Shown here: positions 4,533-64,000 of the stretch, in pieces
How positions within the stretch are numbered: position 1 is the first letter of the stretch
How the letters are laid out: every line of letters begins with the position of its first letter
The notes under the pieces: generated by a model
The model's database searches: none
What the model saw: only the letters and a program-made list of their open reading frames with translations
Told to the model about the DNA's origin: nothing
Position numbers and translations under genes: made by a program
From: Bacteroidales bacterium
GTDB taxonomy: Bacteria; Bacteroidota; Bacteroidia; Bacteroidales; WCHB1-69
Length of the DNA: 64,000 nt
Assembly (NCBI GenBank): GCA_045627805.1
Contig: JAZQOJ010000201.1
Coordinates: 59,467 to 123,466 of the forward strand
Reading direction: 5' to 3'

Positions 4533-4540
4533 TATCTTTG
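4533..4540 (+). promoter_or_regulatory. Candidate Bacteroidota -7 box (TATCTTTG)
   Basis: Matches TAnnTTTG and lies 18 nt upstream of the ATG at 4558. No clear -33 TTTG at the canonical spacing. Confidence 0.4.
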
Positions 4541-7026: not shown

Positions 7027-7542
7027 ATGACTCCTCTTGTGATTGTTTTGGTAGCGGTTTTGCCCGCACTGATTATTGCCCTGACGGCTTTCCTCATCGT
7101 GAAATATTTTGTGGAAAACGATCAGAAGAAACGGCTTTTGGAATTGAAATACGAGTCCAAGAACATTACGATTCCGATTCGGTTGCAGGCCTACGAGCGT
7201 ATGGCGATGTTCCTTGAACGCATTGATCCGCCGCAGTTGCTCTTCCGTGTCAATAATCCCGAACTGACCGCATACCAGATGCAGACGATATTGCTGTCCA
7301 CAATTAGAAGCGAGTTCGAGCATAATATGTCGCAGCAGGTGTACATTGCTCCCGATGTGTGGGAGGGTATCCGCAACGCCAAGGAGATGGTGGTGAATGT
7401 GATCAACCTCGCAGGAGGTCGCTTGCCCGACGAGGCCACAGCTACCGATCTCGCTGCCTCTATTCTGGAGGCCGTCGCCGAGAAGTCCCCTATCTCAGTG
7501 GCTATGGAACGCCTCAAAAAAGAGGTAGCCCTACTATATTAA
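7027..7542 (+). CDS. Hypothetical N-terminally anchored protein
   Basis: N-terminal TM helix (MTPLVIVLVAVLPALIIALTAFLIV) followed by a soluble, probably helical domain. No family recognised. Confidence 0.55.
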   Translation: MTPLVIVLVAVLPALIIALTAFLIVKYFVENDQKKRLLELKYESKNITIPIRLQAYERMAMFLERIDPPQLLFRVNNPELTAYQMQTILLSTIRSEFEHNMSQQVYIAPDVWEGIRNAKEMVVNVINLAGGRLPDEATATDLAASILEAVAEKSPISVAMERLKKEVALLY

Positions 7543-7856: not shown

Positions 7857-7864
7857 TATTTTTG
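7857..7864 (+). promoter_or_regulatory. Candidate -7 box (TATTTTTG) for the giant gene
   Basis: TAnnTTTG match in the 420-bp AT-rich gap, about 160 nt upstream of ATG 8023. The -33 element is unclear. Confidence 0.4.
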
Positions 7865-14000: not shown

Positions 14001-17000
14001 TCTCGTTGTCGGAGATCCTATCATCTGTGATGGTAACGCCGTAGTTTTAACTGCCAATATCGTTGATTATGACACTACTTTAGTAAACCTCAACTATCAA
14101 TGGTTGGTTAACAACACTATCATTCCTGGTGCTACTACTCGCAATTTGACTTATAACGCTGCTGACAGTACTGATCCTTACATTTTTGTTGCTCACGTTC
14201 AGTTTGATAACGGTTGCAGAAGCTTCAGCGCTGATTATCCGGTTTATGTTAACGACAGCATCTATGTGACTGTTACCGCTGACGATACTACTATTTGTAA
14301 GAATGGTACGGTTACTTTGACTGCTAATCTCGCTGATTATAATGATGATTTCTTGACCTATCAATGGTACAAGGGCACTAATAGCATTCCTGGTGCTACC
14401 AGCAGAACTTATACTACTACGGTAGAAGATAATGCTACATTTAAGGTTCGTGTATATCAGACTTCTTCACAATGCACTGCAGAAGGAAGCATCAATATTC
14501 ACGCTTATGATGTTCCTACTATTTCTGCCATCACTTTGAGTCAGGATTCTGTTTGTACTGGTTATCAGGTTCGCGTTTCTGCTACTTTAGCAACTGCAGG
14601 AGTTTCTACTGATTCTTGCATCTATACTTGGTACAGAAATGGTGTCTTGATGAACGGTATTTCTGGTCCCAGCTTCTATGATGCTCCTCATATGGATGGT
14701 GATACTTTGCAGGTATTTGTTTACAGTGCAACTGTTAGCCAAACCAGTTCAGCTTGCGAATCACCAATGAAATTCTCTGACACATTGTTCGTTTTCCCGA
14801 TGCCTACTGTTGAGGTTTCTGGTGACGCTATCTTGTGCTATGGTGATACAATTACTCTCTTTGCTCATATTCAGCAAGATGACGCTTCTGATTTCTTGTC
14901 AACTACCCATACTTGGTTAGTTAATAATGATATCACTTTGAACGATGGTGTTCTTACAGCACCCAACACTATTTTCTATCGTGAAAATATTGTTCGTCCT
15001 GCTACTGATGAACCTTATATGTTCTCAGTTCGCATTAACCGGGGCAATGGTTGTACAGTTACAAGTGCTCCTTATGCTGTTAAGATCAATGCAGCTCCTG
15101 TAGCATTTGTTACGGCTGATGACACTACCATTTGCGAGAATGGCACTGCTACTCTTTATACTCACATTGATAACTATAATATTGATAACCTTACCTTCCA
15201 GTGGTATAAGGATGCAATCATTCCTGCCAATATGATTCAAGGTGCAAATGAACCTATTTACACCACATCTGAACTCTCAGCTACTACTACTTATTTTGTG
15301 ATTGTTTCTCAAACCACTTCTTTGTGTGCTGATACCGCTCAGATTAATGTTAATGTTGTTAGCGCTCCCAGCATTGCCAGCATTGAGTTAAGTGCTGACA
15401 ATATTTGCCAAGGTGCTCAGGATACAATTACTGCTCACGCTATTGGTGGCGTTGAAGGCGAAGCTTATTCTTTCACTTGGTATAGAAACAATGTTGAAAT
15501 TGAAGGTGTTCACGATTCTACTTTCGTTGATGCTCCTACACTTGCTGACATTGATCAGAACCAATTTGTTTATACTGCTGTTGTTCGTCAGGAAAGCGCT
15601 GGCTGCGTTGCGCCTGCCTCTGCTTCAGTTGTTCTTTCTGTACTTCAGAATCCTACTGTAAGCATTTCTGGTGATGCTATTCTCTGCAACGACAGTCTTA
15701 TTACTTTGGTTGCTCACGTTAATGATACTACTACTGGTGTTGGTGCATACGAATATCAGTGGAGATTGAATAATGAAGATATCGCGGGTATGACCACTGA
15801 TACTTTGAAACAGAACAAGGCCGCTCAGGATGAACCTTACTTGTATTCTGTTGTAATCTCCAATGTTAATGGCTGCACTTCGATCAGTGAACCTTATGCA
15901 GTTTATGTTAATGACACCATTTTGGTTGAAGTTACTTCTACTGAAGACAGTATCTGTGCAGGTGGTGTTGTCACTCTGACTGCTAATCTCGGCGATTATA
16001 ATGCTGATAATCTCGTTTACAGATGGTACACTGTTGATGGCAGTGCTGAAACTGAAATCGCAGGTGCTACTTCCCGTACTTTAACTGTTGAACCTATTGA
16101 AACGACTTCTTATAGAGTTCGCGTTCTTCAAACCACTTCAGAATGTAACGCTTTCGGTGACTACACCATTAAGGTTGTTGAAGCTCCTGAGGTTACTCTT
16201 ACTTTGACTCCTGACAGCGTTATTTGTAGTGGTGGTCAAATTACTTTAACTGCTACGGTTGAAGGTGAAGGTTCCTATGCTTGGTACAGAAATCAATCTT
16301 TGATTGCTGGTGCTGATCAGAACACTTATACTGATTCTCCGCTTGCAGTTGACGGTGATGTGACCGAATTCGCTTACGCTGTGATTTTCACTCCTAATAT
16401 TGAAGGTTGTGTTTCTACCACGGTTGATACTTTGGTTACTGTTTATCCGAATCATTCTGTAGAAATTGCTGGTGATCCTATCATTTGCAACACTAACAAT
16501 GTTCAGTTAACTGCTAATTTGAATGATACTGTTGCAGGTGGCACTTACACTTATCAGTGGATGCTTGCTAATGAAGATATCGCTGGTGCTACTGACCGTA
16601 TTTATGATGCTAATTATTCTACTTCAAGAGATTATCCGTACATCTTTACTGTTAGAGCTACTAATGAACTTTCTGGCTGCTCTTCTATTAGTGAACCTTT
16701 CTATGTATATGTAAATGCTAATCCTGTTGTTGCAGTTTCTGCTACCGACACCAGCGTTTGCAATGATGGTGAAGTTACTTTGACTGCTCATATTGGCGAT
16801 AATAATACTCCTAATTTGGTTTACACTTGGTATGCTGATGGCGTTGAAATCGCGGGTGCTACTGAAGCCACTTACACTACTACTGTTACGGCTACTACCA
16901 CCTACAAAGTTGATGTTCGTCAAACCACCTCTGATTGCCACGCTGAAAACACTATCGTTGTTTACAAACACGAAGTTCCTACTGTTGCTTTAGCAGTTGG

Positions 17001-40231: not shown

Positions 40232-40627
40232 CTATTTATCGCCTAACTTTTCCACGATTGACAGCAACCGAGCTATCTGCGCATCCTTTTCCTTGATCTG
40301 CGCATCCTTTTCCTTGATCCGTTCGTCCAATAGATCTATCTGGGCACGCAGCACATCCGGACTGTCGCTATAGTACTGGCGGTTGTCAATATTGCCGTTA
40401 TTGTCATTCCCAACCACAACGTTACCATTATTTTTGGAGAAAACTTCCGAATTTTCCGAAAAATACATTTCCAATATTGAAAGATTCGCTTTATTAGGCT
40501 TGGTCTTACCTTCAATATAATTCTTTAGTGTTGAATTACTTAAATTTGTAGCTTTTGAAATTTGATTTAGCGGGATATTGGTATCCCGCAATTTTTTTAA
40601 AATTTTTTCTATCTGTAAATCAGTCAT
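40232..40627 (-). CDS. CI-like HTH (XRE-type) repressor with C-terminal coiled coil
   Basis: The N-terminus has an HTH (IPLNQISKATNLSNSTLKNYIEGKTKP). The C-terminus is heptad-rich (IKEKDAQIKEKDAQIARLLSIVEKL). It is divergent from a cro-like gene. Confidence 0.7.
   Translation of the reverse strand: MTDLQIEKILKKLRDTNIPLNQISKATNLSNSTLKNYIEGKTKPNKANLSILEMYFSENSEVFSKNNGNVVVGNDNNGNIDNRQYYSDSPDVLRAQIDLLDERIKEKDAQIKEKDAQIARLLSIVEKLGDK
40277..40318. repeat. Perfect 21-bp tandem duplication inside the repressor gene
   Basis: CTGCGCATCCTTTTCCTTGAT occurs twice (40277-40297 and 40298-40318), encoding IKEKDAQ twice, which is one added heptad in the coiled coil. Confidence 0.95.
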
Positions 40628-40684: not shown

Positions 40685-40692
40685 TATTTTTG
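40685..40692 (+). promoter_or_regulatory. Candidate -7 box (TATTTTTG) for the rightward early operon
   Basis: TAnnTTTG match 9 nt after the second operator and 55 nt upstream of ATG 40747. Confidence 0.5.
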
Positions 40693-40746
40693 CACAAAAT
40701 TATTGAACTAATACAAGAATACAAATAAACAACAAATTTACAAAAT

Positions 40747-45041: not shown

Positions 45042-45049
45042 TATCTTTG
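45042..45049 (+). promoter_or_regulatory. Candidate -7 box (TATCTTTG) for the toxin-antitoxin pair
   Basis: TAnnTTTG match 26 nt upstream of ATG 45075. Confidence 0.5.
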
Positions 45050-45074: not shown

Positions 45075-45275
45075 ATGGCAGAAATCACATTGACATACGA
45101 TGGCAGAAATATAGCTGCAAAAAAAATGTTGGAAGCTATATTATCACTTGGTCTGTTTAAAAAGAAAGAAAAAAGAATGTCCGGATTGGACGAAGCATTG
45201 AAAGAAATTAAAGATGGAAAGGTCAATAGATATTCCACTGTTGATGAATTTGTAGAGAAGATGAAGAATGTTTAA
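45075..45275 (+). CDS. Putative type II antitoxin
   Basis: 66-aa ORF whose stop overlaps the toxin start by 8 nt. Assigned from position upstream of a YafQ-like toxin. Confidence 0.6.
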   Translation: MAEITLTYDGRNIAAKKMLEAILSLGLFKKKEKRMSGLDEALKEIKDGKVNRYSTVDEFVEKMKNV

Positions 45276-45543
45276 GATTCTAACCACTAATAAATTTGAA
45301 AAGGATTTTCAACGTTGCATCAAGCGAGGATTGGATATAAACATCATTACTAATGCGATGAAATTGTTGGAAATATCTGGAACATTACCACAAAGCTATC
45401 GTCCGCATAAGCTAACAGGGAATTATAAAGGATGCTGGGAATGCCATTTACAGTCAGACTGGCTTATGGTATGGCAACAGGACAACAATGAATTAACATT
45501 GCTCTTTACTGATACTGGGTCTCATTCCGATTTGTTCAAATAA
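45268..45543 (+). CDS. RelE/YafQ-family type II toxin (mRNA interferase)
   Basis: 91 aa. FEKDFQRCIKRG...HKLTGNYKGCWECHLQSDWLMVWQQD matches the YafQ pattern (H.L.G...G..ECHI.PDWLLIY). Confidence 0.8.
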   Translation: MFKILTTNKFEKDFQRCIKRGLDINIITNAMKLLEISGTLPQSYRPHKLTGNYKGCWECHLQSDWLMVWQQDNNELTLLFTDTGSHSDLFK

Positions 45544-45597: not shown

Positions 45598-45627
45598 ACC
45601 GGTTCAGAAATGGACCGGTTTTTTTTT
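45598..45627 (+). terminator. Rho-independent terminator
   Basis: ACCGGT(TC) pairs with (GG)ACCGGT (45598-45619), followed by T9. Confidence 0.75.
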
Positions 45628-45675
45628 GCATAAAAATCTTTCGGGAAAACCTATGCTTTCAACACGTCATTTTTT

Positions 45676-45766
45676 TTGTAACTTTGTAACCTTATATAAA
45701 AAAATCAACTTATATTATTAAAAATAAATAGGTTACAAAAGGTTACAAAAAGTTACAAAGTTACAA
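45676..45766. repeat. Iteron cluster 1: 2x TTGTAAC, a 41-bp AT-rich spacer, then 4x GTTACAA
   Basis: TTGTAAC at 45676 and 45684. GTTACAA at 45732, 45742, 45752 and 45760 (10, 10 and 8-bp spacing). The spacer is nearly pure A/T. Confidence 0.85.
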
Positions 45767-45824
45767 AAAAACGAGTTTTTTCGTTTTTTTTGTTTCAGCA
45801 GGAAATTATTCGGTTTTTTTACCA

Positions 45825-45832
45825 TACCTTTG
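45825..45832 (+). promoter_or_regulatory. Candidate -7 box (TACCTTTG, extended TTTGCAGCG)
   Basis: TAnnTTTG match about 60 nt after the iterons and about 270 nt upstream of ATG 46103. It shares the TTTGCAGC extension with other boxes in the element. Confidence 0.45.
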
Positions 45833-46102
45833 CAGCGTTTTCCGAAAGGAAACGCGTGTGTGGCGGTTTGCCAGCTTTCCACACCGCCCAATTACCCCAA
45901 TTTTTTTTGTGATTACTTTCAGAAAGTGGTTGCCCAGGTGAATATTTCCGTCGTTTTTCGGTAAACTGATGTGCGAAAACCGCCACTTACCGGTAATTCC
46001 ACACGTCGAAAACGGTTTACTATGACGGGAAACCATTTTAAAATACGATAACATATTAATTATCAAGTAATTGTTTTATAAATCAAATCAAAAGGCAAAA
46101 AA

Positions 46103-46738
46103 ATGGATAACACAGAATCAAGAAAATTGCAGCCGATTACGGTAAAGTTATCGCCTGAAACCTACGACAGATGGAAGGAACTCACCCTGGAGGGAGCTTT
46201 CGAGACCAACGGTCAACTTGTGGCAGCACTTATCGAGAACTACTATTCACCGATGAAGGCAAACAAGGATAATGAAAAGACCATTGCTCAGCAGAAGGAA
46301 ACCATTTCTTCTTTGTCGGGTCGGATTTCCGAAATGGAAAAAGAACTCACGGCACTCCGTCATTCCCTGGCTGAGGAACAGGGAAACAACGAAAACCTTT
46401 GCGGAAAAAACGAGGAACTGGCAGGCAGAATTTCCGAACTGGAAGACCGTAATGCCGAAATGGGCTTGCAGATCAGCGAGGCAGAGAAAAAGCAGAAACA
46501 GTTGGCCGGCCACCTGATTGTACCGGTTTCCCCACTCGAAACAGAATGCCTGAAATATCTGAGCGAACGCGAATGCAAACGCCGTGGGCGCAACGACATC
46601 ACGCCGGAAATCTTTTTCCGCTACTGCGTTTCCGAAATGCTGATTAAGGGAAACAAGTTTTCCGTTGACTGTGTTCCCGACCGCGTAATCAATGAGATCA
46701 AAGCTCGCCTTAATACCGAAAAACAACCAACCGAATAA
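46103..46738 (+). CDS. Putative ribbon-helix-helix / coiled-coil protein
   Basis: The N-terminus ITVKLSPETYDRWKELT is RHH-like and the central part is a long coiled coil. Function unknown. Confidence 0.55.
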   Translation: MDNTESRKLQPITVKLSPETYDRWKELTLEGAFETNGQLVAALIENYYSPMKANKDNEKTIAQQKETISSLSGRISEMEKELTALRHSLAEEQGNNENLCGKNEELAGRISELEDRNAEMGLQISEAEKKQKQLAGHLIVPVSPLETECLKYLSERECKRRGRNDITPEIFFRYCVSEMLIKGNKFSVDCVPDRVINEIKARLNTEKQPTE

Positions 46739-46759
46739 GAGAACTATGAATGAGATGGT
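46722..46759 (+). repeat. 38-bp direct repeat, copy A
   Basis: AACAACCAACCGAATAAGAGAACTATGAATGAGATGGT differs by 1 nt from copy B, 275 bp downstream. It spans the stop of 46103..46738 and an ATG. Confidence 0.9.
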
Positions 46760-46841
46760 GAGACGTACAGGAAGAAAGAAGTTGGCTTTTAAGACGATGT
46801 ATAAAATCGAACTTAAATCAAGAAAAAAGCGGAAAAAATAA
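46746..46841 (+). CDS. Possible 31-aa highly basic peptide
   Basis: MNEMVRRTGRKKLAFKTMYKIELKSRKKRKK. Its first 4-5 codons are copied from the start of 47021..47299 through the direct repeat, so it may be an insertion artefact rather than a gene. Confidence 0.25.
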   Translation: MNEMVRRTGRKKLAFKTMYKIELKSRKKRKK

Positions 46842-46857
46842 ATCTTCTCCGCTTTTT
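46828..46857. terminator. Hairpin terminator, potentially bidirectional
   Basis: AGCGGA (46828-46833) pairs with TCCGCT (46848-46853). T-runs follow on both strands. Confidence 0.6.
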
Positions 46858-46944
46858 CGCCGTAAGCGAGGGTATATGTGAAATCTCCCTCAAACGTCCA
46901 GAACGATCTTACGCACTATGTCTTGCGTATGGCAAAACCTGCTG

Positions 46945-46952
46945 CAAAAATA
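46945..46952 (-). promoter_or_regulatory. Minus-strand -7-like box (TATTTTTG, extended TTTGCAGC)
   Basis: The plus strand reads GCTGCAAAAATACAC. Its reverse complement matches TAnnTTTGCAGC and points leftward toward hairpins and the 46828 terminator. Confidence 0.3.
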
Positions 46953-46996
46953 CACAAATATTTTAATAAAAAATAAATACCATAAAAATTTTAATC

Positions 46997-47034
46997 AACA
47001 ACCAACCGAATAAGTGAACTATGAATGAGATGGT
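46997..47034 (+). repeat. 38-bp direct repeat, copy B
   Basis: AACAACCAACCGAATAAGTGAACTATGAATGAGATGGT. It contains the start codon of 47021..47299. Confidence 0.9.
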
Positions 47035-47299
47035 AATCAAATCACTAATAAAACCGTTGCTTCCGAAAGCGAAAACCTTTGTCGCCTCCGGAAAAATTGA
47101 CGGATTTCTGCAAGAAAGAAAAAAACAGTTTTCCAACCAGGTCAACATTAATGAGACCGTTGAGATACTGGTAACTACCGAAGGGAAGGACGAATACGTT
47201 AATTTCATCGCGTTGGAAAATGGCCTGAATCACAGATTCCGTGTGATTTCTCAAATGAGACTTACAGAACTTCTTGTTTCAATCATAGATCAAATCTAA
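47021..47299 (+). CDS. Hypothetical protein
   Basis: 92-aa ORF. No motif recognised. Confidence 0.5.
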   Translation: MNEMVIKSLIKPLLPKAKTFVASGKIDGFLQERKKQFSNQVNINETVEILVTTEGKDEYVNFIALENGLNHRFRVISQMRLTELLVSIIDQI

Positions 47300-47300
47300 T

Positions 47301-47945
47301 ATGGGAGTAGGTATTATCAATGGTGATGTGCAGCCGGAAGGCGGCGCACCACAGACAAAAGATGCTTTTGATGAGTTTCTGGATGCTTTGAAGCAACCCA
47401 AACAGAATTACCGTCCCATTGACGAGCCACCGGCGGAAGATCCAGAGGATTACGAAGATGATACGGATAATCCGGAAGAATCCGGCGACACATATCTCAC
47501 CCCGGAAGAGATAAAGACGCAGCGCAACAATTTCGAGTTTTCCTTAGTACCGGCGGAAACCATTGTCGAGTGCATTGATATGGGCTACTGTGGCGTTGGC
47601 AAGCTCATCGTCAAAGAGGAAGTCGAGGGTGCGACGGAAGACGAAAAGACCAATCTGACGAAGGCGTGGGCGGATTATCTGAAAGATAAGAATGCCGACC
47701 TGTCGCCCGGATGGGTGCTGGTCATTATGCTGCTGATTGTTTACGCTCCGAAGATCTATACCTGTTTCGAGGTCCGCAAACTAAATCAGGAAAACCAGGA
47801 ACTTCAGGCGGCGAATGAGGAACTGGCAGCTCAGAATGAATACCTGATCCGTAGAATGGAGGCGTATGATAAGAAAAAGAAAGCAAAGAAAGCCGCTCAG
47901 GAAGAGCCAACGGAAACGGAAAGCGAGCCCAAGCCAAAAAACTAA
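47301..47945 (+). CDS. Hypothetical membrane protein with acidic N-terminus and C-terminal coiled coil
   Basis: Acidic Pro/Glu/Asp-rich N-terminus, one TM helix (WVLVIMLLIVYAPKIY), then a QELQAANEELAAQNEYL coiled coil and a Lys-rich tail. Confidence 0.55.
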   Translation: MGVGIINGDVQPEGGAPQTKDAFDEFLDALKQPKQNYRPIDEPPAEDPEDYEDDTDNPEESGDTYLTPEEIKTQRNNFEFSLVPAETIVECIDMGYCGVGKLIVKEEVEGATEDEKTNLTKAWADYLKDKNADLSPGWVLVIMLLIVYAPKIYTCFEVRKLNQENQELQAANEELAAQNEYLIRRMEAYDKKKKAKKAAQEEPTETESEPKPKN

Positions 47946-47948
47946 AAG

Positions 47949-48365
47949 ATGAATATTAAGAATACTGATTATAAAACCATTAAAGGCAATGAATATATCA
48001 AGGTTGGTAGGATTACTATGTCTGTCGCAAGGAAATCACATATAAAGGCGGCCAACATTATGATTGATATGAATCATATAAAGCACATTGCACAAAAACA
48101 CGAATTAGAACTTTCCAAACTCGGAATCTCTTCAATAGACTTTGTGAAATGCATTGCTTCTTCTTACACAGAAATTAGAGTCCTTGGAAATTCGCTATAT
48201 CTCGTAGCACCTAATGATTCCAAACAGACATTTGTAGCTATCGTTAAAATGAATTACAACATTGGGAAGGGATTCTGGGAAGTAAAAACGGCTATCCCGA
48301 TGAGAATAGCCGAAGTTCTAAAAAAAGAACTTATTTGGAAAAAGGGAGCGAACCCCTTAAAGTAG
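47949..48365 (+). CDS. Small protein of the 'NH.KHIA.KH ... GFWEVKTA' family (possible barnase/EndoU/RelE-like nuclease domain)
   Basis: Paralogue of 59512..59937, with shared motifs I..NH.KHIA.KH..EL..LGI, MNY....GFWEVKTA.P and KKEL.W. The nuclease idea rests only on my memory of PBECR-type domains. Confidence 0.5.
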   Translation: MNIKNTDYKTIKGNEYIKVGRITMSVARKSHIKAANIMIDMNHIKHIAQKHELELSKLGISSIDFVKCIASSYTEIRVLGNSLYLVAPNDSKQTFVAIVKMNYNIGKGFWEVKTAIPMRIAEVLKKELIWKKGANPLK

Positions 48366-48416
48366 TATAAAAAACTACTGTATCCTTCTGCAATTAAGCA
48401 ATTCGCTGATACGCTG

Positions 48417-48424
48417 CAAAAATA
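48417..48424 (-). promoter_or_regulatory. Minus-strand -7-like box (TATTTTTG, extended TTTGCAGCGT)
   Basis: The plus strand reads ACGCTGCAAAAATACAA, 52 nt after the stop of 47949..48365, and points back into that gene. Confidence 0.3.
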
Positions 48425-48463
48425 CAATCTTTTTTCTTATAAAACATAATCTTGAACAAAAAA

Positions 48464-48574
48464 ATGAAAAAAAACGCAAAAGACAGCACAAATGCAAATC
48501 AGTTAATGAGTACAAGTCGATTCTCCAAATTTATAATTGGGAATCCGCACAATATTTTGGACTGCACGGATTAA
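48464..48574 (+). CDS. Possible 36-aa ORF
   Basis: MKKNAKDSTNANQLMSTSRFSKFIIGNPHNILDCTD fills the gap before the ATPase gene. No other support. Confidence 0.2.
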   Translation: MKKNAKDSTNANQLMSTSRFSKFIIGNPHNILDCTD

Positions 48575-48601
48575 TGTAAAAGCCACTATTCTAATAAACC
48601 A

Positions 48602-49192
48602 ATGGAAGATAAACCAGAACGTATCGCAACCAGCGTTATTTTGTGCGGAATCAACGGAACCGGGAAGACGACATTGCTTCGGAATATTCTCACCGAAATG
48701 ATGAATAGTGGGCAGCGGGCGTTGATCGTAACTCCGGATCCGCTCGAATGGGGTGGCGTGAAGGAAGTCAATGACCGGAACCAGTCGGAAATATCCACAT
48801 TTGAAGGAGCACGGAAAATCATCTATTACAAGGGCTGTATGGAGCTCATACAGAAATACTACTACAACGGTATTCTGGTTTTTGATGATGCGCGTGTCTA
48901 TATCCGGGCGCAAAGCGACGACTTTATGACCTGGCTCCAGATACGCCGCCGACAGGCGGGTATAGACCTGTTCACTGTAACTCACGGACTCACACAGGTG
49001 CCGCCAATATTCTTCACCTTTGCCTCAACGCTGATACTCTTTTACACCAAAGACAATATCAAACGTCGCGGCGACTATGTGGATGAAGCCGACTTTGAGG
49101 AAATACAGCAGGCCAAAAAGCGAATCTCGCAGATTGTAACCACTGGCAACAAATATTATTACGAAATCATCAAGTTAGACAAACGCATTTAA
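48602..49192 (+). CDS. Small P-loop ATPase, Zot-like (alternatively an A32/FtsK-HerA-type packaging ATPase)
   Basis: 196 aa. Walker A GINGTGKTT and Walker B ILVFDDA. Then RRRQAGIDLFTVTHGLTQV, which resembles the HRHxGxDhhhhTQ motif of Zot/pI-type assembly ATPases as I recall it. Confidence 0.65.
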   Translation: MEDKPERIATSVILCGINGTGKTTLLRNILTEMMNSGQRALIVTPDPLEWGGVKEVNDRNQSEISTFEGARKIIYYKGCMELIQKYYYNGILVFDDARVYIRAQSDDFMTWLQIRRRQAGIDLFTVTHGLTQVPPIFFTFASTLILFYTKDNIKRRGDYVDEADFEEIQQAKKRISQIVTTGNKYYYEIIKLDKRI

Positions 49193-49202
49193 TATCAAGA
49201 AA

Positions 49203-49619
49203 ATGGAAGAATTCATCGAACCCGTTTACCAGGCAGTCGCCCCGGAAACAAAACCCAAAATGAGCAAAGAAAAAATCATCATCATCGCCCTTGCCGTCGT
49301 GTGTGCCGGAGCAATCGTTTACTGCATCATACTGAAAAAGAGGTTGAAATCCAAACCGAAGGACAATGTGCATCGCAGCCGTCCGCTTGTAATCCAGGAC
49401 GATCCGGATGAGGATGAAGACGAAGACTTTAATGATGATCCTGGAAATACGGAATTACCGTCCCACGATAATGAAGATCTAAACGTAACTCCAGACAGTA
49501 ACATTATGGCTGTATTGAATAAAATCCGCAGCGGCGAAATCACAAGGACTGACGCGGCCAAGGAGTTGGGGGTTAGCAGACGAACAATCGGAAGATATTA
49601 TGCAAAATACATCGGATAA
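49203..49619 (+). CDS. Membrane-anchored protein with acidic linker and C-terminal HTH
   Basis: TM helix IIIIALAVVCAGAIVYCIIL, an acidic run DDPDEDEDEDFNDD, and a C-terminal resolvase-like HTH (ITRTDAAKELGVSRRTIGRYYAKY). Confidence 0.65.
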   Translation: MEEFIEPVYQAVAPETKPKMSKEKIIIIALAVVCAGAIVYCIILKKRLKSKPKDNVHRSRPLVIQDDPDEDEDEDFNDDPGNTELPSHDNEDLNVTPDSNIMAVLNKIRSGEITRTDAAKELGVSRRTIGRYYAKYIG

Positions 49620-49794
49620 CAAACTCACCGCACAACCGAGAACCCTATCGGAATTGGCCTGCGCTTATCACGTAAGCAAGCGGACATTCAAGAAATGGCT
49701 TTCTTGTGATACGTTGAAGGACATTCAACCTATTGGCAATTTCTATTCCATCGCACAGATCACACGAATAATCAACCATCTTGGAGAACCGTAA
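49600..49794 (+). CDS. DUF4248-like small HTH protein
   Basis: LSELACAYHVSKRTFKKWL...FYSIAQITRIINHLGEP resembles the Bacteroides DUF4248 pattern that ends in LGEP (from memory). It overlaps the previous gene by 20 nt. Confidence 0.55.
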   Translation: MQNTSDNKLTAQPRTLSELACAYHVSKRTFKKWLSCDTLKDIQPIGNFYSIAQITRIINHLGEP

Positions 49795-49844
49795 GTGTGC
49801 AAAAGTGTACAAAATCGCTAAAAAACGGACAAAAAAGTGCAGAA

Positions 49845-49878
49845 GTGCGCAAAAGTGATAATCGTGACTTTTGCGCAC
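49845..49878 (+). promoter_or_regulatory. Perfect 12-bp inverted repeat (hairpin or operator) abutting a promoter box
   Basis: GTGCGCAAAAGT (49845-49856) and ACTTTTGCGCAC (49867-49878) are separated by 10 nt. Related half-sites GTGCAAAAGTG and GTGCAGAAGTG lie just upstream. Confidence 0.6.
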
Positions 49879-49881
49879 TTG

Positions 49882-49889
49882 TATTTTTG
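49882..49889 (+). promoter_or_regulatory. Candidate -7 box (TATTTTTG, extended TTTGCAGC)
   Basis: TAnnTTTG match 37 nt upstream of ATG 49926. Confidence 0.5.
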
Positions 49890-49925
49890 CAGCTCAAAAT
49901 TAATCAAAAACAAAAAAAACAGAAA

Positions 49926-50096
49926 ATGAAGAAATTTTTAACCGACAATTTACACATCATTGTGATTGTGGTGGCCGTGATCGCAGTTTGTGCGCTTGTC
50001 AAAGTTCGTAGAATTGAAAACGGCAACACGACTAAAACTGAAACAAAAGACATCATCAATCCCAAATGCGGCGAAACCGATGATGACGAAGAATAG
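49926..50096 (+). CDS. Small single-TM protein with acidic C-terminus
   Basis: 56 aa from ATG 49926, since the track ORF start at 49797 would run through the hairpin and promoter. TM helix HIIVIVVAVIAVCALV and tail GETDDDEE. Confidence 0.55.
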   Translation: MKKFLTDNLHIIVIVVAVIAVCALVKVRRIENGNTTKTETKDIINPKCGETDDDEE

Positions 50097-50119
50097 TTAA
50101 CAACATAAATTTTTTGAAT

Positions 50120-58053: not shown

Positions 58054-58512
58054 ATGAAAAAAAAGAAAATAGCCGCGATAATCATTGTTGCCGTTGTAAT
58101 AGCAATCATCGTGATCGTCTGTCTGTTGGTTTCAAAAAGAAAGAGATATTCCGCATATCAGGATTCACTCAAATATGATCCATCCGTGTTCCCGCTCAAG
58201 AAGGGAAGTAGAGGAAAAGAGGTGGAGGAAATTCAGAAATATATGAATGCCGTGTTCTCGTCAAAGATGTACAAAGAGAAATTTGGAGAACACGAACTTT
58301 TGGATGTGGATGGTATTTGGGGTGATAAAACCGAAGCCGCCGTCAACGGATTTATGGCGACATCTTCGATTGAAGAAGCGATGTACGGTTGTCTAATGAC
58401 TTATAAGAAATATAAGAATTTTGACAAGTTTTACGAAGCTGTCGAAAGCGGTAAGGAATCCTGTCAATACACCACCCCGTCAAGGTCTGTTACGGTTTCT
58501 GTCAATGGATGA
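58054..58512 (+). CDS. N-terminally anchored peptidoglycan-binding-domain protein
   Basis: TM IAAIIIVAVVIAIIVIVCLLV. KKGSRGKEVEEIQKYMN...VDGIWGDKTEAAVNGF is PG_binding_1-like. Confidence 0.65.
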   Translation: MKKKKIAAIIIVAVVIAIIVIVCLLVSKRKRYSAYQDSLKYDPSVFPLKKGSRGKEVEEIQKYMNAVFSSKMYKEKFGEHELLDVDGIWGDKTEAAVNGFMATSSIEEAMYGCLMTYKKYKNFDKFYEAVESGKESCQYTTPSRSVTVSVNG

Positions 58513-58548
58513 TTCGCCTTTCAATTGATGGTCGGTAAACGATAAAGA

Positions 58549-58953
58549 ATGAAAGATTTACAGATTCCAAAAGGAACCAAGCCAGAAGATGTAAAAAAAC
58601 GCTGTCAGATTATCAAATCACAGTTAAAAAAATTAAAGGGGAAAACAATCATTTGCCCTTGCTTAGGTAATGTTCCTGTTGACATATCTGCAAGAAGCAT
58701 AGATGAAATCTCGACACACGCAGCAAAAAAATATTCCTCCACCCTTGCCGCATTGGATATAAAAAATGCGATAAAAAAAGCAAGGTTTTTCAGAATGCAT
58801 ATACCTAAAGACAATATGCAGCAAAGGAAAATGGGATTTCTTTTCCTGTATGTATTAAAATGTGAATCTTCAAATGGAGAAACGATAAAAATAACTATTG
58901 GAGTAAGGGAACGCCCCATTAAATTCTTACAATACTGTATAACAGTAGAGTAA
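58549..58953 (+). CDS. Hypothetical 134-aa protein (possibly another small nuclease-like fold)
   Basis: VPVDISARSIDEISTHAAKK followed by beta-rich FLFLYVLKCESSNGETIKITIGV. Its layout resembles the 47949/59512 family loosely, and it is followed by the same downstream motif. Confidence 0.4.
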   Translation: MKDLQIPKGTKPEDVKKRCQIIKSQLKKLKGKTIICPCLGNVPVDISARSIDEISTHAAKKYSSTLAALDIKNAIKKARFFRMHIPKDNMQQRKMGFLFLYVLKCESSNGETIKITIGVRERPIKFLQYCITVE

Positions 58954-59026
58954 TAAAAAAAAGGTGGTTACTCTGAATCTTTCCCGACTATGATACTAGT
59001 CTTGTACCAACCACCAAAGGACGCTG

Positions 59027-59034
59027 CAAAAATA
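59027..59034 (-). promoter_or_regulatory. Minus-strand -7-like box (TATTTTTG, extended TTTGCAGCGT)
   Basis: The plus strand reads ACGCTGCAAAAATACAAAAT, 70 nt after the stop of 58549..58953. A GGTGGTT/AACCACC hairpin (58963-59016) lies between the box and that gene. Confidence 0.3.
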
Positions 59035-59319
59035 CAAAATAAAATCAAATTACAACATCCAATCAAAATATTTATGAAAAAGTCGAACACCAGCACCCGC
59101 GCAAGCAAGATCCTTCGTGAAAGCCGTAAGGAGTACCAGTCAATCCTACAGAAGAACATCAGCAAGCAAACCGGTAAAAAGAACGTCTGCAAGGCCGCTA
59201 AGGAGGCAAGCAAGCAGTACGACAAGATGAGTTGGGCCGAGGCACTCCGGATTGCCGCATCAAACGGAACCGGAACGAAGAAAGTGAAAAAGACGGCTTC
59301 CAAGCCGAAACATAAAAAG
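59027..59319 (+). repeat. 293-bp dispersed repeat, copy 1 (5' region and first ~80 codons)
   Basis: Aligns with 59965-60257 at a 938-nt offset with few substitutions. Covers the upstream motif, the RBS region and the codons for MKKSNTSTRASKILRESRKEYQSILQKN...KKVKKTA. Confidence 0.9.
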
Positions 59320-59511
59320 ACCAGTAAAAGAACAGAAGAAAGAATCTCTTATTTCAAGAGAATCGGAGTGACCTTTTTTGATGAGCTGCCAAAAGGTTGG
59401 AAACTTGATGAATCGGGCACAACAGCACCAAACGGATATGCGTGGTGCAATAACGGGGTGAGTAGATTTTCGAACCAATACCGTATCGCATTAGTGAAGA
59501 TTGATGAGTAG
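59074..59511 (+). CDS. Lys-rich basic protein, short form (145 aa)
   Basis: Start at ATG 59074. The N-terminal ~80 aa are nearly identical to those of 60012..61064. The unique C-terminus is PKGWKLDESGTTAPNGYAWCNNGVSRF. Confidence 0.6.
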   Translation: MKKSNTSTRASKILRESRKEYQSILQKNISKQTGKKNVCKAAKEASKQYDKMSWAEALRIAASNGTGTKKVKKTASKPKHKKTSKRTEERISYFKRIGVTFFDELPKGWKLDESGTTAPNGYAWCNNGVSRFSNQYRIALVKIDE

Positions 59512-59937
59512 GTGATGATAAGAGTGGGACGTCTAAGGAGAACTGTCGCAAATGCAGTCCGTAGAGAATGCGCTGACATCTATATTTCAGATAATTATGT
59601 AAAGCATATAGCAATTCATCATAAAAAGGAACTGATGCAGCTGGGTATAGAGGCCTTGGCCTACGTCAGAATAATTGTCTCTAATTTCAATCAAATCAGA
59701 AAGGGGACAGGAAATTCATTGTTATTGATTATGTGCAGCGATGAGATGAGCCATATTGCAGCAATTGAAATGAATTATTCAACTAAAGATGGATTTTGGG
59801 AAGTCAAAACAGCACAACCCCGATTGAAAACCAAGGTTGAAAAAAAAGAATTGCTGTGGGGAATTGCCCAAGTTCCCAAACGTTCCTGCAACGCTTCCCA
59901 TTTTCTATCAAAGACAAAAAAAGCAGGGTCTAAATAG
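59512..59937 (+). CDS. Second member of the 'KHIA.HH ... GFWEVKTA' family
   Basis: DNYVKHIAIHHKKELMQLGI, MNYSTKDGFWEVKTAQP and KKELLW are shared with 47949..48365. Confidence 0.5.
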   Translation: MMIRVGRLRRTVANAVRRECADIYISDNYVKHIAIHHKKELMQLGIEALAYVRIIVSNFNQIRKGTGNSLLLIMCSDEMSHIAAIEMNYSTKDGFWEVKTAQPRLKTKVEKKELLWGIAQVPKRSCNASHFLSKTKKAGSK

Positions 59938-59964
59938 TATGGCCATCAGACACAACAATTTTGG

Positions 59965-59972
59965 CAAAAATA
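59965..59972 (-). promoter_or_regulatory. Minus-strand -7-like box (TATTTTTG)
   Basis: The plus strand reads TTGGCAAAAATACAAAAT, 28 nt after the stop of 59512..59937. It is part of repeat copy 2. Confidence 0.25.
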
Positions 59973-60257
59973 CAAAATAAATTCAAATTCCAACATCAAA
60001 TCAAAATATTTATGAAAAAGTCGAACACCAGCACCCGCGCAAGCAAGATCTTACGGGAAAGCCGTAAGGAGTACCAGTCAATCCTACAGAAGAACATCAG
60101 CAAGCAAACCGGCAAAAAGAACGTCTGCAAGGCCGCAAAGGAGGCGAGCAAACAGTACGACAAAATGAGTTGGCCCGAGGCACTCCGGATTGCCGCATCA
60201 AACGGAACCGGAACGAAGAAAGTGAAAAAGACGGCCCCCAAGCCGAAACCTAAAAAG
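59965..60257 (+). repeat. 293-bp dispersed repeat, copy 2
   Basis: See copy 1. Confidence 0.9.
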
Positions 60258-61064
60258 TCGGTGGCTATCAAGCGCGACCGTTCCCAACGCAGTCTCGCCT
60301 TCAAAAAAATGGTGGCGGAAAAGAGGGCAAAAAGTTCTTGCTCACGTTCTGCCAAAATGTGTGACAGCAAAAAAAAAAACAATCGCGTACTAACCAATGA
60401 AAAGATCACCGAAATATTACTCAAGGTAGCGAGCGCCGAAACCCTTAGACCAGGAATGTGCTGCGTATATTGGGATGCCGAACAACAGAATATCGTATCG
60501 ACAGACGCACACATACTGTGTTGCGTTCATACGCATATCGCCGCCAAGGATCATCAAAGATTATTCACCACCAAAAGCAGACTGAACAAAATAATCAAAG
60601 GGTACGATCCGAGAGTTGACAAATTCCCACTTGAAAACTTGAAAAAACTGGAAGAGGGTACCGCTACTTGCAAAAACACAGGATTGCACTACCCTAAGTA
60701 TATGAACGTTATTCCACGTGACTATTCAACCAGTTTTACTGCGAATCTGTCGGATTTTTATGACGCAGCGGAAAAAAGCATAAAAAAGCCGAATGATCAT
60801 CCTGCTTTTGACAGAAACAAATCGCGAGTTTCCTTGAGGGTGCCAGGAACTGTGATCCAACTAAACGCGGAATTATTAAAGAAGTTTGTGAAAACACTTA
60901 TGGCCTTTGGCGAAAAAGCAACTGTAAAAATTGCTGCAAAAGATGAAGCACCACTACAGGCAGTGCTGTTTGAAGTAGGACAATGTACCGGACTGATTAT
61001 GCCATTATTTATTAGAGAAGAAGACATCACCTGCCAGAACTGCCAAATTCTTTCTCTAAAATAA
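60012..61064 (+). CDS. Lys-rich basic protein, long form (350 aa)
   Basis: Start at ATG 60012. It has the same basic N-terminal module, then a unique ~250-aa domain (…LRPGMCCVYWDAEQQNIVSTDAHILC…). Its last codons resemble the 3' ends of the downstream tandem genes. Confidence 0.6.
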   Translation: MKKSNTSTRASKILRESRKEYQSILQKNISKQTGKKNVCKAAKEASKQYDKMSWPEALRIAASNGTGTKKVKKTAPKPKPKKSVAIKRDRSQRSLAFKKMVAEKRAKSSCSRSAKMCDSKKKNNRVLTNEKITEILLKVASAETLRPGMCCVYWDAEQQNIVSTDAHILCCVHTHIAAKDHQRLFTTKSRLNKIIKGYDPRVDKFPLENLKKLEEGTATCKNTGLHYPKYMNVIPRDYSTSFTANLSDFYDAAEKSIKKPNDHPAFDRNKSRVSLRVPGTVIQLNAELLKKFVKTLMAFGEKATVKIAAKDEAPLQAVLFEVGQCTGLIMPLFIREEDITCQNCQILSLK

Positions 61065-61108
61065 TTCCAGGAATGAATCGTTAAAGTGAACAATCAAAAC
61101 GAAGTGTT

Positions 61109-61585
61109 ATGGCTATGAAGAAAGAATTGAAAAAAGTGAATTGGTACCGCGTCGAAGACGTGATCGTAATGGTTGGCGTGTTGCTTTTTATATTGGTATT
61201 GTGTAAAAAAATGGATGTAATTACATTCTTGTTTTCAGAAACCGGTGTTTTTTTGTTGTGTGTGTTAGTTGTTTTTTTATTAAAAAAAAACTATATCGGA
61301 GATACTGTAGTAGAAAATGAGACCGAGCACGATATTTATTCCAAAGACGAGGAATCGTCGAATGTGGTCGTGATTCCATCACACGAAAGAGTTTCCGGTA
61401 TCGACGGAATCAAGGTGGACGGTGTGGTTTACAAACTGTGTTCCGGAACCCACGTGGTAGTGAAGGAAAATGGGAAGGTGAGAACAAAATCCTTGACAGG
61501 AAAACTTGTCAACAACACCCGCGGCGGAAAAATATCATCCCCGCCGGATGAGGGTTGGAATAACCTATTTCTTTCTATAGCATAA
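61109..61585 (+). CDS. Two-TM protein with conserved C-terminal soluble domain, copy 1
   Basis: 158 aa. The N-terminal 19 aa and C-terminal ~95 aa are nearly identical among the copies, while the TM region (aa ~20-60) diverges. Confidence 0.7.
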   Translation: MAMKKELKKVNWYRVEDVIVMVGVLLFILVLCKKMDVITFLFSETGVFLLCVLVVFLLKKNYIGDTVVENETEHDIYSKDEESSNVVVIPSHERVSGIDGIKVDGVVYKLCSGTHVVVKENGKVRTKSLTGKLVNNTRGGKISSPPDEGWNNLFLSIA

Positions 61586-61629
61586 TTCCAGGAATGAATC
61601 GTTAAAGTGAACAATCAAAACGAAGTGTT

Positions 61630-62106
61630 ATGGCTATGAAGAAAGAATTGAAAAAAGTGAATTGGTACCGCGTCGAAGACGTGATTTTAATTGTTGGCGT
61701 GTTGTTTTTTATACTACTATTGTGTAAAAAAATAAATTATTTAACCTGGGTCTTTTCAGAGTTGAGCGCATTCTTTCTGTTATTTTTGATTACGTTTTCG
61801 TTGTTAAAACACTATATCGGAGATACTGTGGTGGAGAATGAGACTGATAAAGATATTTATGCCAAAGACGAGGAATCGTCAAATGTGGTCGTGATACCAT
61901 CACACAAAAGAGTTTCCGGTATCGACGGAATCAAGGTGGACGGTGTGGTTTACAAACTCTGTTCCGGAACACACGTGGTAGTGAAAGAGAACGGGAAGGT
62001 GAGAACAAAATCTTTGACAGGAAAACTTGTCAACAACACCCACGGCGGAAAAATATCATCCCCGCCGGATGAGGGTTGGAATAACATATTCCTTTCCATA
62101 GCATAA
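61630..62106 (+). CDS. Two-TM protein with conserved C-terminal soluble domain, copy 2
   Basis: 158 aa. Same pattern as copy 1. Confidence 0.7.
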   Translation: MAMKKELKKVNWYRVEDVILIVGVLFFILLLCKKINYLTWVFSELSAFFLLFLITFSLLKHYIGDTVVENETDKDIYAKDEESSNVVVIPSHKRVSGIDGIKVDGVVYKLCSGTHVVVKENGKVRTKSLTGKLVNNTHGGKISSPPDEGWNNIFLSIA

Positions 62107-62150
62107 TTCCAGGAATGAATCGTTAAAGTGAACAATCAAAACGAAGTGTT

Positions 62151-62621
62151 ATGGCTATGAAGAAAGAATTGAAAAAAGTGAATTGGTACCGCGTCGAAGA
62201 CGTGCTCGTAATTGTGGGCGTGTTGCTTCTAATATTAGTATTGTGTAAAAAAATAAATCCTTACACCTGGTTCTTTTCAGAGTTGAGTGCGGTTTTTCTG
62301 GTATTTGTAATTACGTTTTTGTTATTAGAACACTATATCGGAGATACAGTAGTGGAAAATGATACCGATCACGATATTTATGCCAAAGACGAGGAATCGT
62401 CGAATGTGGTCGTGATTCCATCACACAAAAGAGTTTCCGGCATCGACGGAATCAAGGTGAACGGTGTGGTTTACAAACTGTGTTCCGGAACCCACGTGGT
62501 GGTGAAAGAGAACGGGAAGGTGAGAACAAAATCTTTGACAGGAAAACTTGTCAACAACACCCACGGCGGGAAAATATCATCCCCTCCCGATGAAGGTTGG
62601 AACAACATATTCCAAGCTTGA
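62151..62621 (+). CDS. Two-TM protein with conserved C-terminal soluble domain, copy 3
   Basis: 156 aa. The C-terminus differs in the last 4-5 residues, where the array ends. Confidence 0.7.
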   Translation: MAMKKELKKVNWYRVEDVLVIVGVLLLILVLCKKINPYTWFFSELSAVFLVFVITFLLLEHYIGDTVVENDTDHDIYAKDEESSNVVVIPSHKRVSGIDGIKVNGVVYKLCSGTHVVVKENGKVRTKSLTGKLVNNTHGGKISSPPDEGWNNIFQA

Positions 62622-62677: not shown

Positions 62678-62681
62678 AATT

Positions 62682-62786
62682 TTGTAACCGATTTTGTAAC
62701 CGATTTGTAACTCGTTTTGTAACCTTGTAAAATATTGTAAATTAGAAATTTATATTGATTTTGTTGTGTTGGTTACAAAGTTACAA
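62682..62786. repeat. Iteron cluster 2: 4x TTGTAAC plus 2x TTGTAAA, an AT-rich spacer, then 2x GTTACAA; the inverted counterpart of cluster 1
   Basis: TTGTAAC at 62682, 62694, 62705 and 62717. TTGTAAA at 62725 and 62735. GTTACAA at 62772 and 62780. The terminal GGTTACAAAGTTACAAAAA is identical to the reverse complement of the start of cluster 1. Confidence 0.85.
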
Positions 62787-62880
62787 AAATTTTGCACGTT
62801 TTTATGCGTATAAAATCATCTTTAAGCAATAATTAAATGCTTAATGCGTTAAGTCTAAAATTTATTAAACTTCATTCAAA

Positions 62881-63629: not shown

Positions 63630-64000
63630 CTAAAAATCCGGAGCGTTGTTGTAAATGGTTTCTATTAGTTTCTCGTCCGCGTGGTTGGCATAACGTGTGG
63701 TCATAGATAGGTCGTGGTGGTCGGCGTGCTGCATCACCGTGAGCGGATCAACGCCTGACTTCAACATATTGTTTATACCGGTATCTCTGAAAGAATAAAG
63801 CTGCATTTCCTTTGGGAGTTTCAGCGCGCTTCTAACCTTTTCCCACTCTTTGCGGAAACGGGCCTGTCCGCAGGGCGTTTTTGCCGGCAGCAAGTCCTCT
63901 CCGAACAAATAGTAGCTTGCCGGGTATCGCTCGATATGCAGCGAACTCAAGTTCTCATAGAGCTGTTCATTCATCGCAGAGAACCTCTCGTTATGCGTCT
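63630..64000 (-). CDS. Tyrosine recombinase/integrase, C-terminal part (N-terminus beyond the window)
   Basis: The reading frame stays open upstream of the track's Met to base 64000. The C-terminal catalytic region is LYSFRDTGINNML...HADHHDLSMTTRYANH (Arg, His and Tyr of the R-H-R-Y set). Confidence 0.8.
   Translation of the reverse strand, partial: THNERFSAMNEQLYENLSSLHIERYPASYYLFGEDLLPAKTPCGQARFRKEWEKVRSALKLPKEMQLYSFRDTGINNMLKSGVDPLTVMQHADHHDLSMTTRYANHADEKLIETIYNNAPDF

Follow-up and report, generated by a model that had tools for sequence, protein, structure and literature searches.

Why would an integrated phage-related element whose genes are read almost entirely in one direction carry promoter-like boxes that point the other way? 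The question is raised by a 64-kb stretch of a Bacteroidales genome (contig JAZQOJ010000201.1, positions 59,467 to 123,466; hereafter the window), which contains an integrated element of ~24 kb, running from ~40.1 kb to beyond the window end at 64 kb. An initial annotation of this DNA had described a recurrent extended box within the element, twice on the coding strand and four times antisense, just downstream of small genes, and had proposed that the antisense copies give rise to short RNAs. The reading put forward here is that the minus-strand boxes would be promoters of short non-coding RNAs (~65-130 nt), antisense to and nested between the rightward genes, with a cis-antisense action like that of the OOP RNA of phage lambda. 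As a combined statement, this appears somewhat more probable than its negation; that the RNAs are made is likelier than the combination, and that they regulate by cis-antisense action is less likely.

The box as a Bacteroidota promoter element

Five exact copies of the motif TANNTTTGCAGC are found in the window (Table 1), whereas dinucleotide-preserving shuffles predict 0.31, and a count of at least five was reached in none of 100 such shuffles. Two copies are on the plus strand and three on the minus strand; the latter, at sites termed A, B and C, share a 14-nt identity that is far beyond chance. The box at the fourth minus-strand site, D, keeps TATTTTTG and then has CCAA instead of CAGC, giving the degenerate form TATTTTTGCCAA. 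The initial annotation was largely right in this respect: the extended box heads an operon at each of the two reported plus-strand positions, 45825 and 49882, and three of the four reported antisense copies are exact, with only that at 59965 overstated. The distances of 28-70 nt that it gave between box and upstream stop codon were measured as 48, 70 and 28 nt. A duplication, which it had named together with chance as a possible trivial origin of the motif, brought in site D.

The shorter form TAnnTTTG is likewise enriched between genes. The 16 intergenic gaps of the element (2,510 nt) hold eight such boxes on the minus strand, where shuffling of these gaps predicts 2.5 and only 5 of 2,000 shuffles reach eight, and four on the plus strand against 1.0 expected. 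The density of minus-strand boxes in these gaps is ~5 times that in coding sequence.

TAnnTTTG is the published -7 consensus of sigma-ABfr, the primary sigma factor of Bacteroidota (PMC7366714), and it is matched exactly at all six sites of the initial annotation and also at 49902 on the minus strand. Promoters of host genes in the window read TAnnTTTGCA at 4533, 7857 and 34417. The 16-mer TGTATTTTTGCAGCGT was found in 115 viral-contig stretches, with many of the matches being redundant ones in coding sequence of unrelated phages; one viral contig of 413 kb carries at least eight copies, each with a conserved upstream block before it and most with an ATG in the same direction 10-36 nt later, as for a sense promoter. 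In the RNA family of site C, described below, the CAGC extension is variable (CAGC, CCGC, CTGC, CAGT or CGGT), and relatives vary only at the two free positions of TAnnTTTG. Because host promoters and viral contigs share the longer motif and its CAGC is not conserved, it is a phylum-wide strong-promoter sequence. By sequence, the motif as a whole is the ordinary primary-sigma -7 box of the phylum with a common 3' extension (GCA...). This agrees with the promoter-like character originally given to the boxes and removes the suggestion that they are peculiar to the element; as an ordinary Bacteroidota promoter, the motif is not to be read as an element-specific signal. The copies described here differ from a typical sigma-ABfr promoter in two ways: no -33 TTTG stands at the canonical spacing, and four to five of the copies oppose the direction of all neighbouring genes.

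Table 1. Boxes, predicted RNAs and associated genes. Positions refer to the window except where a locus of a relative (L001, L002 and so on) is named.
Feature	Position	Strand	Remark
-7 box TACCTTTGCAGC	45825..45836	+	Exact match to TANNTTTGCAGC; heads operon starting 46103; conserved in L001
38-bp direct repeats	46722-46759 and 46997-47034	.	Flank the 275-bp segment that contains site A
Site A predicted RNA, ~115-120 nt	46820..46940	-	3-4 hairpins and terminator
Site A -7 box TATTTTTGCAGC	46941..46952	-	Exact match to TANNTTTGCAGC (46952-46941)
PBECR3-like gene, 138 aa	47949..48365	+	Upstream of site B; Pfam PBECR3 E = 0.004
Site B predicted antisense RNA, ~130 nt	48284..48412	-	Ends at in-gene hairpin
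Site B -7 box TATTTTTGCAGC	48413..48424	-	Exact match to TANNTTTGCAGC (48424-48413); identical in L001
-7 box TATTTTTGCAGC	49882..49893	+	Exact match to TANNTTTGCAGC; heads operon starting 49926 (44 nt on); conserved in L001
Fifth minus-strand -7 box TAATTTTG	49895..49902	-	Overlaps and faces the plus-strand promoter (TATTTTTGCAGCTCAAAATTA)
LPD3-domain gene, 134 aa	58549..58953	+	Upstream of site C
Site C predicted RNA, ~65-70 nt	58954..59022	-	Alignment, pair counts, covariance model
Site C -7 box TATTTTTGCAGC	59023..59034	-	Exact match to TANNTTTGCAGC (59034-59023)
Second PBECR3-like gene, 141 aa	59512..59937	+	Upstream of site D; Pfam PBECR3 E = 0.0012
Site D possible antisense RNA	59806..59960	-	Weakest of the four sites
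Site D -7 box TATTTTTG + CCAA	59965..59972	-	Degenerate; arrived with 294-bp duplication
Large RNA-like regions	L002 4409-4690 and 2255-2500; L009 2450-2880; L033 1527-1950	-

Structured RNAs predicted behind the minus-strand boxes

Site C is the strongest case among the minus-strand sites. The gene upstream of it encodes a protein assigned to the LPD3 domain (Pfam E = 7e-6; 26.7 bits against a cut-off of 27, with homologs carrying PF18798), which is listed among domains of elusive function in the paper that describes it (PMC5512222). The structural model of this protein is confident (predicted local distance difference test, pLDDT, 89), and a PDB search with it gave no informative match. The RNA predicted to start from the site C box consists of a 7-bp outer stem, a covarying inner hairpin and the loops GGUUGGUACAA and GGGAAAGAUUCAGAG. 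Eight consecutive minus-strand T residues stand directly against the LPD3 stop codon, and the overlap of the RNA with the upstream coding sequence would be 0 or a few nt.

A family for site C was built from homologs of the LPD3 gene (~50% amino acid identity) on other contigs, using the stretch that follows the stop codon. The resulting alignment, A4, contains nine distinct copies, one of which came from a pattern scan, in a Bacteroidales metagenome-assembled genome (MAG). Eight of the nine stand directly after an LPD3 gene, and the copy in L023 stands alone. The minus-strand box TAnnTTTG is kept in seven, with TT or GT at the free positions, and the spacing from box to RNA body, TTTGCnGyGTCC, is fixed across the family. 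The inner hairpins have wholly different sequences (GACUA/UAGUC, GGCGG/CCGCC, GUCAG/CUGAC, GCCCC/GGGGC) and are 100% paired, with four of five pairs compensatory, while the two loops are invariant. Over the whole structure, 97% of cells are standard pairs and five pairs have changed on both sides. The covariation score of 0.419 was reached by none of 500 shuffles, which scored 0.141, and sliding the 3' partner by 1-3 columns as a control led to a far lower score for pairing and covariation.

Several observations concern the strand from which the RNA would be read. The alignment contains four G-U cells and zero A-C cells, which favours the minus strand. In every member that reaches that region the T8 run is a minus-strand feature, either directly after the outer stem (the window and L014) or behind an extra hairpin; the plus strand of site C has an A-run ahead of the hairpin and no T-run behind it. 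Between the box and the start codon that comes next are 35 to 75 nt, depending on the family member, and this leader is not conserved. Since the spacing to the RNA body is fixed and the distance to the ATG varies, the box appears to belong to the minus-strand RNA and not to the downstream gene.

A covariance model of the RNA body gives the window copy (58963-59022, minus strand) 83.7 bits and recovers known copies only, leaving undetected the RNAs after LPD3 genes in L005, L006, L021 and L030. Both L005 and L006 have distant LPD3 genes (11-15% identity) followed by the minus-strand box TAACTTTGCA(A/G)GCGT, behind which are a long hairpin with different stem sequences and a T7 run that abuts the LPD3 stop codon. 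The LPD3 gene of L030 is closer, and the same convergent layout is seen there with the minus-strand box TTTATTTG. LPD3 relatives were not found in the genome collection, and a scan for the core pattern of site C gave a single match in that collection and none in viral contigs. Rfam models matched nothing in the window at gathering thresholds and nothing relevant in 40-64 kb at E <= 5. To judge from these comparisons, site C represents a new conserved family of structured small RNAs (sRNAs), absent from Rfam and linked to LPD3 genes.

Two genes, at 59074-59511 and 60012-61064, share a duplicated, very basic N-terminal region of ~80 aa, and in relatives the genes that follow the site C family RNA likewise begin with Lys-rich basic stretches. 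For the 350-aa protein, PHROG matches to RusA-like and DNA-polymerase-processivity families are weak.

Site B and site D each follow a gene for a PBECR3-like protein, and the two paralogs are 41% identical. Their Pfam PBECR3 matches are below the curated 30-bit cut-off; PBECR3 is matched by five of the nine members of the PBECR3-like family (best E = 4e-5), which keeps His, Glu, Arg and Lys-Thr residues. PBECR domains are predicted RNases of phages and conjugative elements (PMC5512222). With the structural model, which is confident (pLDDT 85.6), the best PDB match was the RelE-fold RNase toxin BrnT (probability 0.93, E = 0.09). The small genes upstream of the boxes had been called nuclease-like; for the two PBECR3-like genes this finds weak support, and for the LPD3 gene none.

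At site B, the first hairpin of the predicted RNA spans the stop codon and has no U-run. Around 100 nt further, inside the gene, a 10-bp hairpin at 48312-48289 is followed by U5 on the minus strand. The 131-nt RNA that would end there folds with -38.1 kcal/mol (z = -5.0) and is predicted to be antisense to the last ~80 nt of the PBECR3-like gene. The second PBECR3-like gene has a different hairpin at the same codons, then a U-rich tract, and homologs in L002 and L033, in which the RNA terminator comes after the stop codon, served as a control: they have no hairpin at that in-gene position. The box of site D is at the left edge of the 294-bp duplication (59026-59319 / 59964-60257, 95% identical). 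The 3' end of an RNA from site D could be a T7 run (59922-59916) or a hairpin (59839-59815) in the second PBECR3-like gene and, if the in-gene hairpin is the terminator, the overlap with the gene would be up to ~130 nt.

Larger RNA-like regions were seen in relatives. PBECR3-like genes in L002, L009 and L033 are followed, after the stop codon, by a convergent region of 290-430 nt with its own minus-strand TAnnTTTG box and a minus-only terminator abutting the stop codon; L002 has two copies. A conserved domain of ~170 nt, …GUUUAGYCCGCCUSCGAA…GGCAUCRGGCGGUUGCCRGCUC, shows some compensatory pairs. This region is absent from the window and had no Rfam match (L001, L002 and L008 at E <= 1).

Site A has no LPD3 or PBECR3-like gene upstream. 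The initial annotation had pictured its box as facing a structured stretch of ~110 nt with a bidirectional terminator, and both details hold: the minus-strand fold has -38.2 kcal/mol (z = -4.1), and the terminator, a stem at 46858-46823 followed by T6 on the minus strand, has T-runs on both strands. AUG is absent from the predicted RNA sequence. The 275-bp segment that carries site A is missing from the 97%-identical relative L001, where the flanking genes stand 7 nt apart. The left part of this segment extends a duplicated start codon into a 31-aa open reading frame (ORF) (MNEMVRRTGRKKLAFKTMYKIELKSRKKRKK) that is highly basic and not hydrophobic.

A terminator with a U-run on the same strand could thus be assigned at A (46858-46823 and T6), B (48312-48289 and T5) and C (7-bp stem and T8), and is weak at D. 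A terminator scan found 30 such matches against 20 expected.

A proposed cis-antisense action and its alternatives

Transcription would begin ~5 nt past each box (~46940 for A, ~48412 for B and ~59022 for C), continue through the structured body and stop at an intrinsic terminator with a U-run only or mainly on the minus strand. Transcription of the rightward operons would read through the same hairpins, as suggested by their lack of plus-strand U-runs; plus-strand terminators in the element, such as that at 45598-45619, do carry plus-strand T-runs. Since the operon mRNA would cross these units, each small RNA would be fully complementary to it. At sites B and D, this complementarity would include the last 80-130 nt of the PBECR3-like gene, while at A and C it would be limited to the intergenic stretch. 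The claim of convergent antisense RNAs directed against the 3' ends of genes finds support at B and D, from terminator-like minus-strand hairpins inside the genes, and none at A and C, where the overlap with the upstream coding sequence would be 0 or a few nt. An OOP-like action could be exerted by the convergent promoter interfering with rightward transcription or by an RNA duplex triggering cleavage, in either case tuning the flanking accessory genes.

OOP is a 77-nt antisense RNA of phage lambda, convergent with the pR operon and overlapping the 3' end of cII. It is the closest working analogue: in both cases a short RNA with its own promoter would lie just downstream of a gene in a long operon of a temperate element, in convergent orientation, with an intrinsic terminator at or within the 3' end of the gene (predicted for sites B and D). 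The RNAs predicted here have no sequence relationship to OOP, there would be several such units per element, and at sites A and C there would be next to no overlap with the upstream coding sequence. OOP lowers expression of its target through RNase III-dependent cleavage, and a similar effect is suggested here by analogy.

The initial annotation had instead likened the layout to type I or type III toxin-antitoxin control, and neither likeness survives. In the 3'-overlapping type I pairs of Bacillus, txpA/RatA and bsrG/SR4, a convergent small RNA does overlap the 3' end of the neighbouring mRNA, as would be the case here. The toxin of a type I system is a small hydrophobic peptide, usually under 60 aa, whereas the genes upstream of the boxes encode proteins of 138, 134 and 141 aa that look soluble and are inside operons. 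In type III (ToxIN-like) systems, the toxin gene is preceded by a tandem array of antitoxin RNA repeats and shares a transcript with it; no tandem repeats were found in the relevant gaps, and the predicted RNAs are downstream of the genes on the opposite strand.

Some of the data weigh against the proposal that the boxes drive cis-antisense RNAs. Minus-strand boxes are expected more often by chance because the plus strand of the element is rich in A. A TTTG at 15-24 nt, a range that includes the canonical -33 spacing of 19-21 nt ahead of the -7 box, is absent at A, B, C, 45825 and 49882; this carries little weight, since the -33 motif was reported to be undetectable in Flavobacterium johnsoniae (PMC7366714). 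The covariation of the site C hairpin does not by itself discriminate strands. Its near-invariant loops are not needed by a purely cis-antisense RNA and hint at another partner. Site B is conserved only in L001, which at 97% identity is too close to be informative, and the site A segment has no relative in any fetched locus by local BLAST. Finally, the box of site D is a passenger of the duplication and has no informative relative, and the RNA behind it folds no better than shuffles (z = -1.35).

The hint of another partner leads to a different explanation, in which the RNAs would serve the LPD3 or PBECR3-like proteins encoded upstream, as antitoxin, immunity RNA or component of a ribonucleoprotein. 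The convergent RNAs, the 290-430-nt family included, would then neutralise or guide these predicted effectors. This would explain why an LPD3 gene immediately precedes eight of the nine site C copies even though the proteins are only ~50% identical, and why a convergent RNA gene is also found after the distant LPD3 genes (11-15% identity) and in four PBECR3-like lineages. Invariant loops on covarying stems are what a recognition surface would look like, and the PBECR3-like model resembles RNase toxins of the RelE/BrnT type. However, the toxicity of these proteins is only putative, the PBECR3 and BrnT matches are below significance and LPD3 gave no informative match. The defining features of type I and type III systems are absent, the L023 copy stands without an LPD3 gene, and site A has no such gene upstream. 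The explanation is considered improbable, if slightly less so than the other alternatives. If true, it would mean that mobile elements of Bacteroidales carry an unrecognised protein-RNA conflict module, similar to toxin-antitoxin systems and outside their current types.

Slightly less probable still is the idea that the boxes of A, B and D are incidental, having arisen by chance in A-rich leaders or as copies in a duplication, and that they produce at most transcriptional noise. A-rich plus-strand leaders do inflate minus-strand matches, site D did arrive with the duplication, and terminator-like matches are frequent. Moreover, most antisense starts in B. thetaiotaomicron give weak, possibly spurious transcripts (PMC7366714). 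These arguments are difficult to reconcile with the 14-nt identity of three sites, or with the RNAs of sites A and B, which fold 4-5 standard deviations better than shuffles. Site C, which is conserved and has both covariation and a strand-specific terminator, falls outside this explanation, which is possible for A, B and D only.

A comparably small chance is given to trans action, in which the element would make sRNAs that regulate host or element mRNAs through conserved single-stranded loops, as GibS and FopS do. The invariance of GGUUGGUACAA and GGGAAAGAUUCAGAG across elements with diverged neighbouring genes is consistent with this model, as is the orphan family copy in a Bacteroidales chromosome. 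Intergenic sRNAs with canonical promoters and terminators are common in Bacteroides (PMC7366714, PMC11697453). Complements of the loops, however, occur in the window only at their own locus, the best other match having three mismatches, which is at chance level. A duplex-energy scan of the start regions in the element was uninformative, with shuffled RNAs scoring better, and there is no likeness to any Rfam family. In contrast to the Bacteroides sRNAs of the GibS and FopS families, the RNAs predicted here lack Rfam matches, are encoded by a mobile element and are always convergent to an accessory gene. An association of FopS itself with mobile elements is not stated in the paper (PMC11697453), and FopS was excluded by the Rfam search. 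As a separate observation, L002 has a weak Rfam match to FopS at 7223-7302 on the plus strand (31 bits, E = 0.43, below the gathering score and not significant), with a 5' seed-like sequence, UCAUAGUAUUAGAUU, followed by a terminator hairpin.

The remaining alternative, raised in part by the initial annotation, is that GCTGCAAAAATACA works on the plus strand as a late promoter, a regulator site or an mRNA leader element of the next gene; three copies do lie 40-90 nt ahead of the next start codon and the box travels with the downstream leader in the 294-bp duplication and in L002, but this is very unlikely given the constant separation of box and minus-strand RNA body across the site C family against a variable ATG distance, the unconserved leader from box to ATG, variation that obeys the TAnnTTTG rule on the minus strand, and the absence of plus-strand TAnnTTTG from these gaps.

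The element and its surroundings

The first 40 kb of the window are chromosomal, with genes for LptF/G, a glycosyltransferase, Dxs, glutamine synthetase, an OmpA-family protein, topoisomerase I and DPP-IV, and include a single ORF of 8,199 aa (8023-32622) with the promoter box TATTTTTGCAAG at 7857. Two genes of the element are on the minus strand, a helix-turn-helix gene at its left (40232-40627) and the C-terminal part of a tyrosine integrase at its right (63630-63974); all remaining genes are on the plus strand. A primase/helicase-like protein of 955 aa shares 41% identity with gp6 of the temperate Bacteroides phage BT-TP2 (locus L151) and 37% with the primase of Polaribacter phage Leef_1. 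Other products of the element are a YafQ toxin, a glucosaminidase and an M15 peptidase, and no capsid or tail genes are recognisable among its genes. Its relatives come from ruminant-gut metagenomes and one Bacteroidales MAG, and have the same ending with a minus-strand integrase. Protein queries found no relatives of the PBECR3-like protein or of a 145-aa protein in viral contigs, and exact-protein look-ups gave no record for the LPD3 protein, the second PBECR3-like protein or a 92-aa protein.

The two plus-strand copies of the box are predicted to be the promoters of the two main rightward operons of the element. The terminator at 45598-45619, which has a T8 run, ends the unit preceding the 45825 promoter. 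The leader between this promoter and the gene at 46103 (45838-46102, 265 nt) shares 95% identity with its L001 counterpart and has a moderate degree of structure (z = -2.3); it may function as a regulatory leader or be a small RNA of the plus strand.

At the second promoter, a 13-bp inverted repeat (49844-49856 / 49867-49879, AGTGCGCAAAAGT/ACTTTTGCGCACT) ends 2 nt before the box. The fifth minus-strand box, missed by the initial annotation, would transcribe through this repeat towards 49800, and the minus-strand fold has z = -3.5. Overlapping face-to-face boxes of this kind (TAyTTTTGCA…CAAAATTA) are found at 49797-49902, at 40685-40702 and in BT-TP2 at 15449-15471, and GTGCAAAAGTG-like repeats also precede those at 49.85 kb. 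The arrangement looks like an operator and switch region.

Arrays of GGTTACAAA / TTTGTAACC repeats (3-4 units) are located at 45730-45769 and 62679-62724, with further repeats at 45675-45690 and 62772-62787. The arrays are inverted relative to each other and flank the main plus-strand gene block; several repeats resemble the -7 box (TAACTTTG). The arrays probably serve a protein of the element as binding sites. At 45075-45543, a small ORF is followed by the gene for a type II toxin of the YafQ family (E = 4e-30); this unit, which has its own plus-strand box TATCTTTGCAAC at 45042, is a conventional protein toxin-antitoxin pair inside the element. Other repeats in the element are three tandem paralogous genes for proteins of 156-158 aa (61043-62621; 521-bp period, 81% DNA identity), the first of which has no family match, and 2.8 copies of a 30-nt tandem repeat (GTGCGACTGGTTACGTTCCATCCGGTTCAG) within the coding region at 52367-52451.

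What lasts from this analysis is the layout, with several small antisense-oriented units within the operons of a temperate phage-related element of ruminant-gut Bacteroidales, and the antisense arrangement is real enough to test. If the RNAs are confirmed, they would offer a first route to the function of LPD3 and PBECR "solo" genes, and OOP-like antisense control would join the very small set of RNA regulators in mobile elements of Bacteroidota.

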